This document shows positions 7,790 to 11,116 of a stretch of 64,000 nucleotides of DNA, one piece after another. A program made the position numbers and the translations under genes. The notes beneath the pieces were generated by a model. It saw only the letters and a program-made list of their open reading frames with translations, was not told the DNA's origin and ran no database searches. How positions within the stretch are numbered: the stretch's first letter is position 1; the number at the start of each line of letters is the position of its first letter. The DNA comes from a bacterium (GTDB lineage Bacteria > UBA8248). Where the stretch lies: NCBI GenBank assembly GCA_965213625.1, contig CBDBZU010000004.1:3424001-3488000 (forward strand), written 5' to 3'.

Positions 7790-8343
7790 GGTGTTACCCA
7801 GTACATCAAGGGACGCTGAAACATAGGAGAGAACTTATCGTCATCGTAATCAATGACGCTCATATCGAACCTGTCGTATCACTGAAGTGATTTAAGGTCG
7901 CCTGGCTTGATGCAGTCAATATCCAGCCGCTCGGTAAGAGGCGCCTCGGTGGACATCATGAGCAGGCATCCCGTGCCGTATGCCGACGCCTGCTTCATCG
8001 TCATCCTAAGCGCTTCCTGCACCTTATGATTGTTCTCCGCATCTTCCATCTTCTCGGCAGAACCGGAATCCTCTTCATCCGACCAGACACGCCATTTCAG
8101 GAATGCGTCATCAACCGGAATGTCGATTGCTTTCTTGGCAGCCCATGACTGTACGTACAGAATTTCGAGAGGATTTCGCCAGTAGATATGTGTAGGTTTG
8201 AAGAAAGTATTTCTTGCTTTATCCGCAGGACCGCCAAGACCGGACATGGCGTTTGAGAGGCCACCCATAGGGCGTGCGCCTCCCGTTCCCGTGCCGATGC
8301 CCTTGTAGGCTCGCTGTATGTATTCCTTCATCCGGTCAAACAT
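7790..8343 (-). pseudogene. DUF1073-type phage portal protein, long 5' fragment with in-frame TGA
   Basis: LY.QSWAAKKAIDIPVDDAFLKW motif; the frame continues past TGA (7879-7881) as YDRFDMSVIDY...PLMYWVTP. Confidence 0.7.
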
Positions 8344-8403
8344 AACGGGAGGATGATTGCATATTGAAACGGGGGCGTAAAGACTGACAAATTAGCAGCG
8401 CTG

Positions 8404-8604
8404 CTAATTTGAATCGTTATCTTCCTCTAGCGCGGACTCAGAGAAAATTCCAATCTTGATACCTAGACTGTAATCTCCCTTCGCCGCCAAATCAAAAGCT
8501 TTATTCTGTAGTTCTACTCCCTTGATCTGCTCAGGCGTCAATCCTTGGTTTTGCATGAATGGCCCTGGATCATTAAATCTGTTTAATTTCCTCTTTCTGG
8601 GCAT
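8404..8604 (-). CDS. Small paralog B1 (66 aa), unknown function
   Basis: Intact ORF with AAGGAG RBS; shares NRxNxPGPFMQ...LTxEQI...GDxxLG...GIF with three paralogs. Confidence 0.85.
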   Translation of the reverse strand: MPRKRKLNRFNDPGPFMQNQGLTPEQIKGVELQNKAFDLAAKGDYSLGIKIGIFSESALEEDNDSN

Positions 8605-8671
8605 ATAACTCTCCTTGAATTTTATTATTCAACCACCTCAAGTATAACACGTTCCGCAAATCCATAAGTAC

Positions 8672-8884
8672 TTTCTTGGCGGCCCATGATTGCTCATACA
8701 GAATTTCAAGGGGATTGCGCCAATATATATGCGTAGGTTTGAAGAAAGTATTTCTTGCTTTATCCGCAGGACCGCCAAGACCGGACATGGCGTTTGAGAG
8801 GCCACCCATAGGGCGTGCGCCTCCCGTTCCCGTGCCGATGCCCTTGTAGGCTCGCTGTATATATTCCTTCATCCGGTCAAACAT
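8672..8884 (-). pseudogene. DUF1073 portal, short 5' fragment (to ...SWAAKK)
   Basis: Near-identical to the start of the 8343 copy; similarity ends after AAKK. Confidence 0.7.
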
Positions 8885-8944
8885 AGCGGGAGGATGATTG
8901 CATATTGAAACGGGGGCGTAAAGATGGGCAAATTAGCAGCGCTG

Positions 8945-9145
8945 CTAATTTGTTTTTTTGTTTCTCTTCAATGCTGACTTAGGAAAAATACCAACCTCTA
9001 CCCCCAAGGTATAATCTCCTTCGTACGCCAACTTCGTGGCTTTCATCATAAGATCAGATTTCCTTATCTGTTCTGGCGTAAGGTCCTCGTCTTGCATGAA
9101 TGGACCTGGCGTATTCCATCGGTTATACACTTCTTCTTTAGCCAT
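8945..9145 (-). CDS. Small paralog A1 (66 aa), unknown function
   Basis: Intact ORF, AGGAG RBS, upstream extended -10 TGTTATAAT. Confidence 0.85.
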   Translation of the reverse strand: MAKEEVYNRWNTPGPFMQDEDLTPEQIRKSDLMMKATKLAYEGDYTLGVEVGIFPKSALKRNKKTN

Positions 9146-9321
9146 AATATTCTCCTAATGAACTACTTCTATTATAACACGTTCTGAGAAACCATACTCA
9201 TAAATTTTATCTTTTGGAACTTTATCAATTTTCAAAACTCGGTATCTGGTTTCAGGACTTAATAAAGATAACTTCATGTTTCTGTTTCGCAACTGAATTA
9301 CAGCCGGAATCATTCCACACC

Positions 9322-9992
9322 TCGTCGACCCCGCAATGGAGCGAATACGTCTCGAAACCGCCGGCGGAGAAAGGTTTTATACCGTCGAATCTCAATACCC
9401 GGCTTTCATGAATTGCAAACGGGCGGTATCCCCGACGTGGTGTTATCCAGTACATCGAGGGACGCTGAAAGTTAGGGGAAAAAACATCGCCTTCGTAATC
9501 GATTACGCTGATATCAAATCTGTCGTATCACTGAAGTGATTTAAGGTCGCCTGGTTTGATGCGTTCAACATCAAGCGGCTCGGTAAGCGGTGCCTCGGTA
9601 GACATCATGAGCAGGCATCCCGTCCCGTATGCCGACGCCTGCTTCATAGTCATCCTAAGCGCTTCCGAAACGTTGTGCTTATTCTCCGCATCTTCCATCT
9701 TCTCGGCAGAGCCGGAATCCTCTTCATCCGACCAGACACGCCATTTCAGGAATGCGTCATCAACCAGAATATCGATTGCTTTCTTTGCGGCCCATGACTG
9801 GACGTACAGAATCTCGAGGGGATTGCGCCAATATATATGCGTAGGTTTGAAGAAAGTATTTCTTGCTTTATCCGCAGGGCCGCTAAGACCGGACATGGCG
9901 TTTGAGAGGCCACCCATAGGGCGTCCGCCTCCCGTTCCCGTAACGATTCCCTTATAGGCTCGCTGTATGTATTCCTTCATCCGCTCAAACAT
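9322..9992 (-). pseudogene. DUF1073 portal, long 5' fragment with in-frame TGA
   Basis: Same TGA position (9528-9530) as the 8343 copy; continues in frame to IHESRVLRFDG, a characteristic DUF1073 motif. Confidence 0.75.
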
Positions 9993-10052
9993 AGCGGGGG
10001 GATGATTGCATATTGAAACGGGGGCGTAAAGACTGGCAAATCGGCATAACTG

Positions 10053-10253
10053 CTAATTTGATTTTTTGTTTTTCTTCAATGCTGACTTAGGAAAAATACC
10101 AAGCTCTACACCAAGAGTTTTATCTCCATTGCGGGCTTCTTTGAATGCCCTGTTTTGTAGCTCTACTCTTTTGATCTGCTCTGGCGTCAAGTCACTTCTT
10201 TGCATGAACGGACCCGGATCGTTAAATCTGTTTATTTGTCTCTTCTTGGCCAT
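10053..10253 (-). CDS. Small paralog B2 (66 aa), unknown function
   Basis: Intact ORF, AAAGGA RBS, conserved family motif. Confidence 0.85.
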   Translation of the reverse strand: MAKKRQINRFNDPGPFMQRSDLTPEQIKRVELQNRAFKEARNGDKTLGVELGIFPKSALKKNKKSN

Positions 10254-10318
10254 ATAGCTTTCCTTTTATAGTTAATCAACTACCTCAAGTATAACACGTT
10301 CCGCGAACCCATAAGTAC

Positions 10319-10531
10319 TTTCTTGGCGGCCCATGATTGCTCATACAGAATTTCAAGGGGATTGCGCCAGTAGATATGTGTAGGAGTGAAGAAGGTATTC
10401 CGTGCTTTGCCCGCAGGTCCGCCAAGGCCGGACATGGCGTTTGAGAGGCCACCCATAGGGCGTGCGCCTCCCGTTCCCGTGCCGATGCCCTTGTAGGCTC
10501 GCTGTATGTATTCCTTCATCCGGTCAAACAT
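10319..10531 (-). pseudogene. DUF1073 portal, short 5' fragment
   Basis: Same break point after AAKK as the 8884 copy. Confidence 0.7.
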
Positions 10532-10591
10532 AGCGGGAGGATGATTGGATATTGAAACGGGGGCGTAAAGACTGGCAAATCGGCAGAACTG

Positions 10592-10795
10592 CTAATTTGA
10601 GGTCTTGTTTTCTTCTTCCGCGTCTGATTTTGGGAAAATACCTATCTCTTCCCCGAGACTATAATCTCCCTCGTCCGCTAACTCGAAGGCTTTCACCATC
10701 AGATCGGATTTTTCTATTTGTTCTTTCGTAAGGTCCTGATCTTGCATGAATGGGCCTGGCGTATTCCATCGGTTATACACATCTTCTTTAGCCAT
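10592..10795 (-). CDS. Small paralog A2 (67 aa), unknown function
   Basis: Intact ORF, AGGAG RBS, conserved family motif. Confidence 0.85.
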   Translation of the reverse strand: MAKEDVYNRWNTPGPFMQDQDLTKEQIEKSDLMVKAFELADEGDYSLGEEIGIFPKSDAEEENKTSN

Positions 10796-11116
10796 AATAT
10801 TCTCCTAATCAACTATCTCTAGTATAACACGTTCAGAGAAGCGATAGTCATCAATTTTGTCCTTTGGAACTTTATCAATTTTCAAAACACGGTATTTGGT
10901 TTCAGGACTTAATAAAGATAACTTCATGTTTCTGTTTCGCAACTGAATTACAGCCGGATTCATTCCACACCTCGACCCCGCAATGGAGCGATTGCTTACA
11001 TCTCTCTCCCGAAATTCCCGGTATCCAGCTTCCGTATTCCTGTCTCACCGGCGGATTGGGGAACACGTTGCGGAAAGCTTTTGATTGAGGCCGAAGTTTG
11101 TCGAATACGTCCCGTA

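Follow-up and report, generated by a model that had tools for sequence, protein, structure and literature searches.

Tandem chromosomal cassettes of a small phage gene between toxin-domain and portal fragments: candidate orphan immunity genes

A block of phage DNA in a bacterial chromosome raises the question of why one small gene should be present there in several intact copies when everything around it is broken. The block lies in a stretch of 64,000 nucleotides (the window) and consists of four cassette units, some 3.2 kb in all, on the minus strand (10991-7790), each running from the 3' end of an upstream gene through an intact 66-67 aa ORF and a linker of ~60 nt to the 5' part of a Phage_portal_3 portal gene (Table 1). 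The G+C content of the array is 42-52% (about 45%), against 61-70% in the flanks and ~59-70% for the chromosome. The block is phage DNA, all of it derived from one spot in a phage genome, at which the 3' end of a gene with a terminal ADP-ribosyltransferase (ART) toxin domain is followed by a 62-67 aa ORF, a leader of ~60 nt and the portal gene. A sequence-only reading of the locus had described a tandem array of four such units, and its layout has stood up well: every unit was found in place on the minus strand, the portal 5' ends are all truncated, and the four small ORFs are intact, each with a GGAG or AGGA core 7-9 nt before the start. Two details required amendment, in that the 60-bp linker described as exact shows pairwise identities of only 85-95%, and the upstream-gene tips, present in every unit as claimed, are of two lengths, the longer of ~62 codons with a frameshift and the shorter of 14. 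The array amounts to a 1650-nt unit present twice, each copy with two sub-units (repeat spacings 541, 1108 and 539), and its left edge at 10991 lies 126 nt past the stop codon of recQ. Junction J2 connects portal codon 215 with the very tip start that forms this left edge and is therefore the junction of the tandem duplication. A 52-aa ORF at 10963-10805, inside the ART tip of unit 1, is spurious.

Table 1. Features of the cassette array and the adjoining host genes (positions in the window)
Feature	Position	Strand	Remarks
recQ-type helicase, host gene just upstream (context only)	11117..13120	-	
Long ART-domain 3' tip, unit 1	10805..10991	-	~62 codons, 1-nt frameshift; own-genome search with 170-aa ART ORF: 65% identity, E=9.5e-10
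Small ORF A1	10592..10795	-	67 aa, class A, intact, GGAG 8 nt upstream
Linker (phage portal leader), unit 1	10532..10591	-	starts with weakened hairpin over A1 stop codon
Portal codons 1-71, unit 1	10318..10531	-	88% identity over query 1-73; junction J1 = 10318/10317
Short ART tip, unit 2	10272..10317	-	last 14 codons + stop
Small ORF B1	10053..10253	-	66 aa, class B, intact
Linker, unit 2	9993..10052	-	
Portal codons 1-215, unit 2	9345..9992	-	nonsense TGA 9530-9528, whole portals have W there; junction J2 = 9345/9344
Long ART tip, unit 3	9155..9344	-	frameshift identical to unit 1; 72% identity to 170-aa ART ORF, E=1.2e-10
Small ORF A2	8945..9145	-	66 aa, class A, intact; 64/66 identical to first small ORF of second array
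Linker, unit 3	8885..8944	-	perfect 10-bp hairpin across A2 stop codon
Portal codons 1-71, unit 3	8671..8884	-	J1 copy at 8671/8670
Short ART tip, unit 4	8625..8670	-	14 codons + stop
Small ORF B2	8404..8604	-	66 aa, class B, intact
Linker, unit 4	8344..8403	-	with hairpin
Portal codons 1 to ~184, unit 4	7790..8343	-	TGA 7881-7879, same as unit 2; array right edge ~7790
Ankyrin-repeat gene downstream (context only)	6594..7649	-	

A second array of two units was found in the same genome at C4:215575-217680, 3.2 Mb from the window array, bringing the total to 6 cassettes in two arrays. The order of ART end, small ORF and portal is constant in 6/6 cassettes, and in all of them the small ORF starts 9-27 nt past the stop codon of the ART 3' end. 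The second array retains the whole upstream domain as a 170-aa ART ORF adjoining its small ORF. One ART tip in this array runs straight into the next ART domain with no small ORF between, and a small ORF was therefore either lost there or never present.

The domain retained from the upstream gene is, on sequence grounds, an R-S-E ADP-ribosyltransferase of the toxin type. The R in (F/Y)RG, STS and QxE/ExE align in order in the 170-aa ORF and 7 relatives, and a single-sequence alignment to ExoT puts the R, STS and Q/ExE motifs at matching places. The 170-aa ORF alone scored 19.7 bits against PF03496, below the cut-off of 23.4; a profile of 8 ART sequences matched ExoT (E=1.8e-13) and ExoS (2.2e-11) and also Vis, Vip2, CdtA, iota Ia, SpvB and C3, with 22 chains in all at E<=0.01. 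A phmmer search with the 170-aa ORF yielded 50 proteins at E<=1e-3, and among 10 ART relatives scanned Phage_Mu_F was present in 5/10 and PF03496 exceeded its cut-off in 5/10 and reached E<=1e-3 in 7/10. Two giant relatives (P0019 and P0020) are made up of MuF and ART repeats. The suspicion that the upstream gene was a toxin is thus borne out by the whole domain in the second array, the profile matches and the MuF-ART fusions, and the last of these, together with the ART identity, also upholds the proposal that the small gene is of the kind that follows phage polymorphic toxins near the portal. The same order of ART, small ORF and portal recurs independently in genome G042 with an unrelated 47-aa ORF; in hhalign comparisons with the present locus the ART domains gave a probability of 96.9% (E=1.9e-10) and the small ORFs one of 0.3%. 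Unrelated small ORFs occupying one slot fit a polymorphic toxin-immunity locus.

The portal fragments give some indication of the donor. The two 154-aa portal ORFs scored 59.2 and 61.0 bits on PF06381 (Phage_portal_3, cut-off 33.8; 2/10 ORFs scanned), and a portal fragment matches the phrog_146 portal (E=1.4e-19). Both ORFs stop at an in-frame TGA beyond which portal-like sequence goes on. All 6 portal copies end between codons 71 and 215, with TGA in two and TAA in one, well short of the ~450-480 aa of a whole Phage_portal_3 protein. That no other phage genes accompany them holds within the searches made, the genome giving 0 matches to the MuF domain (PF04233) and 4/4 matches to PF06381 being truncated; the MuF fusion is seen in relatives of the ART domain and was not observed on this particular ART. 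Whole portals 89-93% identical to the fragments exist on metagenome contigs of 43-75 kb, the 90%-identity cluster of the fragment containing portals of 472, 469 and 447 aa on contigs of 71392, 74846 and 42884 nt. A homologue of the small ORF (P0016) and a whole portal (P0080) are each on a contig of 71392 nt, a pairing made by matching nucleotide size. Because whole portals are found on phage-sized contigs, one of them size-matched to a contig with a homologue of the small ORF, the source phage is probably extant. One unitig from the read runs considered below switches to a whole-portal allele.

How the copies came to differ bears on what they are for. The earlier by-eye identities were exact (142/154 aa between the long portal fragments, 41/66 aa between B1 and B2), and between positional counterparts the small ORFs are 70-79% identical in nucleotides compared with 82-94% for every other segment (matches 300/402 versus 1028/1134, Fisher p=2e-14). 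The observation that the live genes differ more than the pseudogenes is therefore real, but it reflects unequal rates in the phage and not selection in the host. Nor did the small ORFs diverge rapidly in place, as had been supposed, pN/pS being low everywhere: 0.09-0.28 in the small ORFs, 0.02-0.26 in the portal pieces and, in parts that are dead, 0.21-0.32 in the frameshifted ART tips and 0.32 in the post-stop portal stretch. Low values even in dead segments imply that the differences had been filtered while the genes were still at work in phages, ahead of their arrival in the array, so that pN/pS is uninformative on selection in the host. The divergence therefore arose in the phage population and came into the array through capture and the exchange of alleles. 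In the small ORFs dS is 0.67 or saturated, except between A2 and the first small ORF of the second array, against 0.16-0.5 in the adjoining portal. Going from small ORF to linker to portal, the nearest neighbours change, and the units align with one another as a mosaic; it follows that alleles have been exchanged by recombination through conserved flanks, in keeping with the earlier suggestion that the flanks act as homology arms. The idea of a library needs qualification, since the variants are real but fewer than they seem, the small ORFs forming two allele classes with A preceding B in all three pairs. The history may have required no more than two capture events, a deletion, a tandem duplication and a single copying to the second locus, with allele exchange afterwards.

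Orphan modules consisting of a toxin C-terminus and its immunity gene, mentioned in PMC5361080 and PMC3482391, lie downstream of rhs and cdiA genes, with upstream homology to the main gene that allows toxin tips to be swapped. The second array resembles these in having a complete toxin domain paired with a putative immunity gene and cut exactly at the N-terminal border of the domain, but 5/6 units keep only the last 14-62 toxin codons and there is no main gene. The MuF modules of temperate phages (Jamet et al. 2017, PMC5576092; Bxa-Bsi/BAH, Alexei et al. 2024, PMC11699363; Apk2-Tis1/Aph1, PMC10083569) share with the present locus an ART toxin, here one whose relatives carry it as the C-terminal domain of MuF proteins, a small ORF directly after the toxin, a place in the head/packaging locus beside the portal, and a slot filled by unrelated small ORFs across lineages. 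Small ORFs are reported to follow MuF toxins, with ARTs making up 14% of the 191 MuF toxins (PMC5576092), and a small protein, Bsi, binds the MuF-ART toxin Bxa and blocks it (PMC11699363). The muf genes described lie immediately downstream of the portal (PMC5576092), whereas here and in G042 the toxin end and small ORF are upstream of it; moreover this genome has no MuF domain, whole toxin gene or whole phage, and its cassettes are truncated, repeated and chromosomal, with a small ORF that matches no family library. The T6SS orphan arrays of Vibrio cholerae, attributed to effector displacement (Kirchberger et al. 2017, PMC5361080), likewise hold tandem immunity-type genes without a toxin, with 3' ends of displaced toxins beside the orphans (here ART tips of 14 to ~62 codons), and are mosaic. 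Their alleles match intact modules elsewhere; the candidate counterpart here is the size-matched contig of 71392 nt. In the present genome 4 + 2 tandem small ORFs are accompanied only by ART fragments and one bare ART domain. Homologous and homology-facilitated illegitimate recombination were proposed for the T6SS arrays, which as described are located 3'-terminally in a functional T6SS cluster whose effector is live (PMC5361080); here there is neither a delivery system nor a live toxin gene, the donor is a phage, and every unit carries a portal 5' end. The AID and rAID-1 systems of Bacteroidales, for which protection has been demonstrated, similarly consolidate orphan genes of skewed G+C in toxin-free cells, on mobile DNA or close to it (Ross et al. 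2019, bioRxiv 10.1101/471110). They differ in combining many unrelated immunity families, all members here belonging to one, and rAID-1 has a XerD-like recombinase at the array head and integron-like intergenic repeats, whereas the ORFs scanned around both arrays here include no recombinase and the repeats are gene fragments.

The explanation that we prefer, and one that we hold to have an even chance of being right, is that the small ORFs are orphan immunity genes against a phage ART toxin, assembled in the manner of T6SS or Rhs orphan arrays. The small ORF would encode the putative immunity protein of the ART toxin, whose relatives make up the C-terminus of MuF head proteins that are believed to be carried inside the capsid. 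An initial fragment, probably the leftover of a decayed prophage or a product of homology-facilitated illegitimate recombination in an island hotspot, would then have given later phages of this group a stretch of homology to recombine with. At the ART tip and portal 5' end, duplication and deletion along with double crossovers or gene conversion would have stacked or replaced alleles, the toxin being lost and the immunity genes retained. Expression may come from read-through of the co-oriented host gene upstream, and the cell would be protected against ART toxins from this phage group or its lysogens. Against this reading stand the lack of any match of the small ORFs in Pfam, PHROG, PADLOC or NCBIfam and the reversed order of portal and toxin end relative to published muf loci, along with several of the points given below for debris. 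We suggest only tentatively the wider proposition that non-lysogens collect immunity alleles of the MuF-type ART toxins of attacking phages through homology at the toxin tip and portal start and keep them among restriction systems, as an acquired defence against capsid-delivered toxins.

It could be argued instead that the arrays are functionless debris, a decayed piece of phage in a hotspot recombining with related phages through mere homology, with arrays arising by duplication and deletion and ORFs owing their intactness only to their small size and to regular replacement by alleles from working phage. We consider this somewhat unlikely, but a good deal of the evidence is compatible with it. 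The equally low pN/pS of dead and supposedly live segments is one such point; another is that A2 and the first small ORF of the second array differ at 2/201 nt, with 0 synonymous differences, while their flanks differ by 5%, which suggests recent conversion and not constraint. Intactness of the small ORFs is by itself not significant, ~3 disabling events in ~3.6 kb of dead flank predicting ~1 in 1.2 kb of small ORFs (P(0) ~0.37), and one cassette has no small ORF at all. The window array follows a recQ conserved in 10/22 congeners searched by DNA, homology ending at 11115-11151, and the closest relative has a tyrosine integrase directly after recQ, marking the site as an integration hotspot. 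Promoter-like sites are not above chance (2 found, 5.0 expected). IS elements and gene fragments are abundant at both loci. A search of 60 further genomes, including 22 congeners, found neither array, and the feature is therefore regarded as sporadic and recent. What debris does not readily explain is the focus of the captures: all six pieces, together with those on at least ten other contigs, centre on one gene of ~200 nt in a phage of 43-75 kb. These other contigs, of up to 682 kb, hold 2-3 members of the small-ORF family with truncated portal ORFs of 58-231 aa (paired by equal nucleotide size). The family, which is previously undescribed, has only 18 clusters among 5.8 billion proteins, all of 66-70 aa, with no truncated member of 34-65 aa among them. 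A recognisable ribosome-binding site is retained at 6/6 small ORFs, weak in one, and each array is co-oriented with and directly behind a host gene, by 126 nt in the window and ~2 nt in the second array. Both arrays also sit among defence genes and the association is strong, 3/4 of the genome's Mrr_cat matches being <=3.9 kb from an array, with a type I R-M system, DUF3800 and a TOTE fragment nearby.

A different function is improbable but has some attractions. Candidate roles for the small protein are those of a phage regulator, an anti-defence factor or a superinfection-exclusion factor; the arrays might instead be recombination traps, or the truncated portal N-termini (154 aa, ending at the same TGA twice) might poison phage by disrupting portal-ring assembly or MuF docking. 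The small-ORF alleles are old and mosaic in the manner of arms-race genes, the setting is a defence island, SPP1 gp7, a MuF protein, is reported to bind the portal (PMC5576092), and non-synonymous divergence of the portal fragments is 0.036 before the TGA and 0.135 after it. The latter comparison covers only 29 codons, however, and the post-stop stretch is variable among whole portals too; other portal pieces carry a TAA or run out of frame into ART tips. Nothing in family and fold comparisons points to a regulator, and the slot directly after a toxin domain is the classical position of an immunity gene. An assembly artefact, in which reads from phage variants present side by side became chained and attached to the chromosome, is very improbable. 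In its favour, the repeats are 86-94% alike, and the read runs contain further alleles as well as a weak 1649-nt skip joint (side 25, 2/4 runs). Against it, unitigs from the 4 runs (at most 2 samples of 1 study, possibly the assembly's own source) span the unique junctions 8383-8691, 9315-9549, 10073-10338 and 10556-10784 with 0-1 differences and bridge the host-array edge 7730-7900 in 3/4 runs, in 3-4 of the 4 runs junction depths are like those of the flanking chromosome, and the same design occurs at the second locus with different host flanks and on the other contigs.

Should the immunity interpretation prove correct, it would bear on the biological role of MuF-fused phage toxins, which is stated to be unknown, with injection alongside DNA and antagonism between bacteria both proposed (PMC11699363, PMC10083569). 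Searches of the literature on MuF toxins and orphan immunity brought up no description of such arrays, and the supplementary tables of PMC5576092 might list remnant loci. The arrays also offer a clear case in which gene fragments, serving as homology arms, assemble cassettes with no dedicated recombinase. If the small ORFs are immunity genes, orphan copies in cells with neither toxin nor phage would mean that the toxin exerts selection on recipients, and the role of MuF toxins would become testable with a natural set of at least five alleles and one cognate ART domain from a single genome. As a principle, orphan immunity would reach beyond contact-dependent weapons (T6SS, CDI, Rhs) and take in phage-borne ones. 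On the wider proposition of an acquired defence, the arrays would be the first system of orphan immunity against a phage head toxin, providing natural-history evidence that head toxins harm recipients and drive an allele race.

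The tandem array of four units that the sequence-only reading had claimed was confirmed as a 3.2-kb block (10991-7790, minus strand) between a recQ-type helicase gene and an ankyrin-repeat gene, with a G+C content of 42-52% against 61-70% in the flanks. Repeat searching and alignment resolved it into a 1650-nt unit present twice, with two sub-units in each, the second series ending within the portal gene, around codon 184, at 7790. The units, W1 to W4, carry the small ORFs A1, B1, A2 and B2, A and B being two allele classes. All four ORFs are intact, as had been stated, and the by-eye identity counts of 142/154 and 41/66 were both exact, but the supposedly exact 60-bp linker is 85-95% identical. 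Both 154-aa portal ORFs exceed the Phage_portal_3 cut-off and also match phrog_146; the four small ORFs gave no matches in Pfam, PHROGs, PADLOC or NCBIfam. The in-frame TGA in the portal is a nonsense change from TGG, since whole portals carry Trp at that site; recoding was rejected, and the second array described below has AGG there.

Positions of the array parts and of genes around the arrays (in the window unless L009, the excerpt around the second array, or L034, an excerpt of another genome, G042, is named)
Feature	Position	Strand	Remark
Mrr-family restriction endonuclease gene	3876-4673		
Ankyrin-repeat gene	6594-7649	-	array neighbour
Small ORF B2	8604-8404	-	second series, after J2
Small ORF A2	9145-8945	-	second series, after J2
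Portal codons 1-215	9992-9345	-	in-frame TGA at 9530-9528; ends at junction J2
Small ORF B1	10253-10053	-	followed by linker
Short tip (14 codons)	10317-10272	-	starts after J1
Portal codons 1-71	10531-10318	-	ends at junction J1
Small ORF A1	10795-10592	-	followed by linker
Long tip of upstream gene	10991-10805	-	frameshifted
recQ-type helicase gene	11117-13120	-	array neighbour
TOTE conflict-system primase domain fragment	13266-13664		
Mrr-family restriction endonuclease gene	14428-15369		
IS transposase	17736-18755		
S24/HTH repressor	20212-20913		
TraK and TrbI conjugation genes	22516-24844		
Type I R-M genes (HsdS, HsdR, HsdM split in two ORFs) and DUF3800 gene	L009 4871-11525		upstream of second array
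Mrr-family restriction endonuclease gene	L009 11836-12708		
IS256-like transposase fragments	L009 13301-13951		upstream of second array; ORF translations by eye
ORF, DDE-transposase end fused to Calx-beta domain	L009 17636-18397		abuts downstream edge of second array
ART end, small ORF, portal start (single unit)	L034 (G042:C5) 10048-10884	-	other family of the phylum

An AlphaFold2 model of the small ORF (pLDDT 71.8) has one long and one short helix, and gave no match at E<=0.001 with Foldseek against BFVD and no usable match against Atlas. A hairpin of 9-10 bp with the stem AAAUUAGCAG lies across the small-ORF stop codons (8940-8961, 8399-8420 and counterparts; L009 15822-15847), being perfect in three of six units, 9 bp in one and weakened in two, and no T-run follows it on the sense strand; it may be a phage regulatory site. 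Promoter and terminator scans of the array found nothing above shuffled sequences, and tRNA and Rfam searches (window 1-16 kb and 5-12 kb) gave no matches.

The identity of the upstream gene came from a second array at C4:215575-217680 (L009 15575-17680), which was found by a DNA search of the same genome and begins about 2 nt past the stop of a lipoprotein-like gene. It consists of a short tip (a 3' end of the upstream gene), a small ORF matching A2 at 64/66 residues, portal codons 1-135 and a tip of about 40 codons closed by a stop, directly followed by a 170-aa ORF, a 62-aa small ORF and portal codons 1-165 with a TAA; one cassette is without a small ORF. The 170-aa ORF is the complete upstream domain. 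By itself it scored 19.7 bits against the PF03496 cut-off of 23.4 and matched ExoT only at E=0.041. A scan of 1.84 billion representatives yielded 50 matches at E<=1e-3, and in a Pfam scan of 10 of these ADP-ribosyltransferase (ART) relatives Phage_Mu_F was present in 5, PF03496 above cut-off in 5 and PF03496 at E<=1e-3 in 7. The two best matches, the metagenomic proteins P0019 and P0020, are 3167 and 3673 aa long with an N-terminal MuF domain. When the ORF was aligned with seven short relatives the Arg, Ser-Thr-Ser and Q/E-x-E motifs were visible, and the profile of this alignment matched ExoT at 1.8e-13 together with 21 further ART toxin chains. Given this whole domain, its relatives and the profile matches, the array tips can be assigned as C termini of an R-S-E ADP-ribosyltransferase belonging to the type that occurs joined to MuF head proteins, and the toxin context earlier proposed for the upstream gene was right. 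Family searches of the genome itself found no MuF domain and no whole portal. Prediction of a complex between ART residues 18-170 and the cognate 62-aa ORF gave scores of 0.81, 0.00 and 0.00. P0019 and P0020 are also giant poly-ART head proteins, with up to nine ART-like stretches after the MuF domain.

The small-ORF family comprises 18 clusters among 5.8 billion proteins, all of 66-70 aa, and had no members in IMG/VR, INPHARED, GTDB representatives or JGI metagenomes; nor did the ART have a relative in INPHARED, where portals are at most 34% identical and lie directly after TerL. Clustered at 90% identity, the 154-aa portal fragment groups with whole portals of 472, 469 and 447 aa (P0080, P0087 and P0090) on contigs of 71392, 74846 and 42884 nt, to which the window fragments are 89-93% identical. 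One small-ORF family member, P0016, sits on a contig of 71392 nt, probably the same contig as that of the whole portal, equal size being the sole basis. In public runs that contain the window, one unitig tracks the window portal fragment to 9574 and then, on translation, continues with the codons of the whole-portal allele; the same samples therefore contain either the phage or a further copy that bears its allele. At least 10 other contigs (4257 to 682180 nt) join two or three members of the family with portal ORFs cut short to 58-231 aa, co-occurrence being judged from equal contig sizes, which indicates that arrays of such design are recurrent. No array was found in 60 other genomes searched, 22 of them in the same genus, nor in 51 genomes of the phylum, the sole exception being one unit in G042.

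In the G042 unit, what remains of the ART is its C-terminal half (hhalign probability 96.9%); next comes a 47-aa ORF with no relationship to the window family, and then a portal start cut at most two codons from the window J1 (after ...SWAA(R/KK)). Nearby are an integrase, a 1172-aa helicase and other pieces of phage genes. That the portal broke here twice independently suggests a hotspot, located where its most conserved block ends. ART, small ORF and portal thus follow one another in this order in two independent cases with different small ORFs, and such replacement in one slot is what a polymorphic toxin-immunity locus looks like. In published MuF loci muf comes after the portal (PMC5576092), whereas here and in G042 the ART end precedes it.

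An important consideration is how the alleles came to differ. Nucleotide identity between positional counterparts is 79% for the class A and 70% for the class B small ORFs, compared to 82-94% for all other segments (p=2e-14), and the alignment of the units is a mosaic in which 100-nt stretches with 0-2 changes lie beside very different small-ORF 3' halves. Nearest neighbours by small ORF, counting the second-array units L1 and L2, are {W1, W3, L1} and {W2, W4, L2}, by linker {W1, W2} and {W3, W4, L1}, and by portal start W4 is nearest to L1. In the small ORFs dS stands at 0.67 or is saturated in every pair save the near-identical W3 and L1, with 0.16-0.5 in the adjoining portal. The pN/pS ratios are low in small ORFs (0.09-0.28) and portal pieces (0.02-0.26), but equally so in dead pieces, namely frameshifted or truncated ART tips (0.21-0.32) and the portal past its stop (0.32). 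Selection within the array was therefore rejected as a reading of dN/dS, and the divergence in place that the sequence-only reading had envisaged was not borne out by this comparison of ORFs with flanks. Since the dead pieces share the low ratios, we conclude that the filtering of the differences took place in phage genes that were still at work, and that the arrays acquired them afterwards, through separate capture or gene conversion; array divergence speaks neither for nor against selection in the host. The proposal that the conserved flanks act as homology arms was correct. Between the small ORFs of W3 and L1, 2 of 201 nt are changed, neither change being synonymous, while their flanks differ by 5%, a match that points to recent conversion. 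A class A allele is followed by a class B allele in all three pairs, and the last ART residues and ribosome-binding region sort with allele class. The window form could have been derived from an ancestor resembling the second array in three steps: a deletion that joined portal codon 71 to the final 14 codons of the ART, giving J1; one tandem duplication fusing portal codon 215 to the exact left end of the array, giving J2; and a single transposition or duplication from one locus to the other, after which alleles would have been exchanged with phages.

Two Mrr-type endonuclease genes flank the window array, at 3.1 and 3.4 kb, and three of the genome's four Mrr_cat matches lie within 3.9 kb of an array. 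A third Mrr gene, the type I R-M system and DUF3800 all precede the second array. Segmental duplication is ruled out because the first window Mrr protein and that of L009 are only 30% identical. The window array lies on the margin of a mobile or defence region, and the first insertion may be what is left of an element that had integrated. In the closest relative (excerpt L043, G020:C1) a P4-like tyrosine integrase gene (2546-3715) lies directly downstream of a recQ that is 22 codons longer, and synteny with the window stops after recQ, at this integrase.

That the small ORFs are orphan immunity genes of a phage ART toxin is a reading to which we give about even weight. Their position after the toxin, small size, old mosaic alleles and unrelated replacement in another lineage all fit an immunity protein, and the MuF-ART toxin Bxa has been shown to have a small immunity protein that binds it (PMC11699363). 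Each array follows immediately after a host gene of its own strand, and each has defence genes around it. A less probable, though serious, alternative is that the cassettes are functionless debris, as junk-rich islands gather debris too, a small ORF is missing from one cassette, promoter-like sites are at chance level and the intactness of all six short ORFs is statistically unremarkable (P about 0.37). Some other function for the cassettes is more doubtful still. A decoy role, in which truncated portal N-termini would poison portal-ring assembly or MuF docking of an infecting phage, was not supported.

An assembly artefact is scarcely credible, as every unique junction, and likewise the edge between host and array, is spanned by unitigs of four runs that show 0-1 differences and depths resembling those of the flanks; the runs represent no more than two samples from a single study and may be the source of the assembly itself. 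Some runs show dips in depth at 8770-8896 and 10421-10547. One contig, present in all four runs, follows the ankyrin-side flank to the exact array edge (7788) and then departs into GC-rich sequence absent from the genome, so a co-occurring strain may be without the array at this site. In runs X1, X3 and X4 a type I-E-like CRISPR repeat stands directly before sequence matching the portal fragment from 8050, and some organism of the community thus seems to hold a spacer against the portal gene. In the genome of the window the core of this repeat has no exact match, nor did a crude scan for evenly spaced 18-mers reveal any CRISPR-like array. The only regularly spaced repeat in that scan was an 18-mer present six times, at a spacing of 50-90 nt, around 53821 of the window.

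In the T6SS arrays of V. cholerae the toxin has been lost while its immunity genes persist next to 3' remnants of it (PMC5361080), and AID clusters show the same pattern (bioRxiv 10.1101/471110). The array may be of the orphan-immunity type, its donor being a phage head-module toxin locus and its units holding fragments of both neighbour genes.
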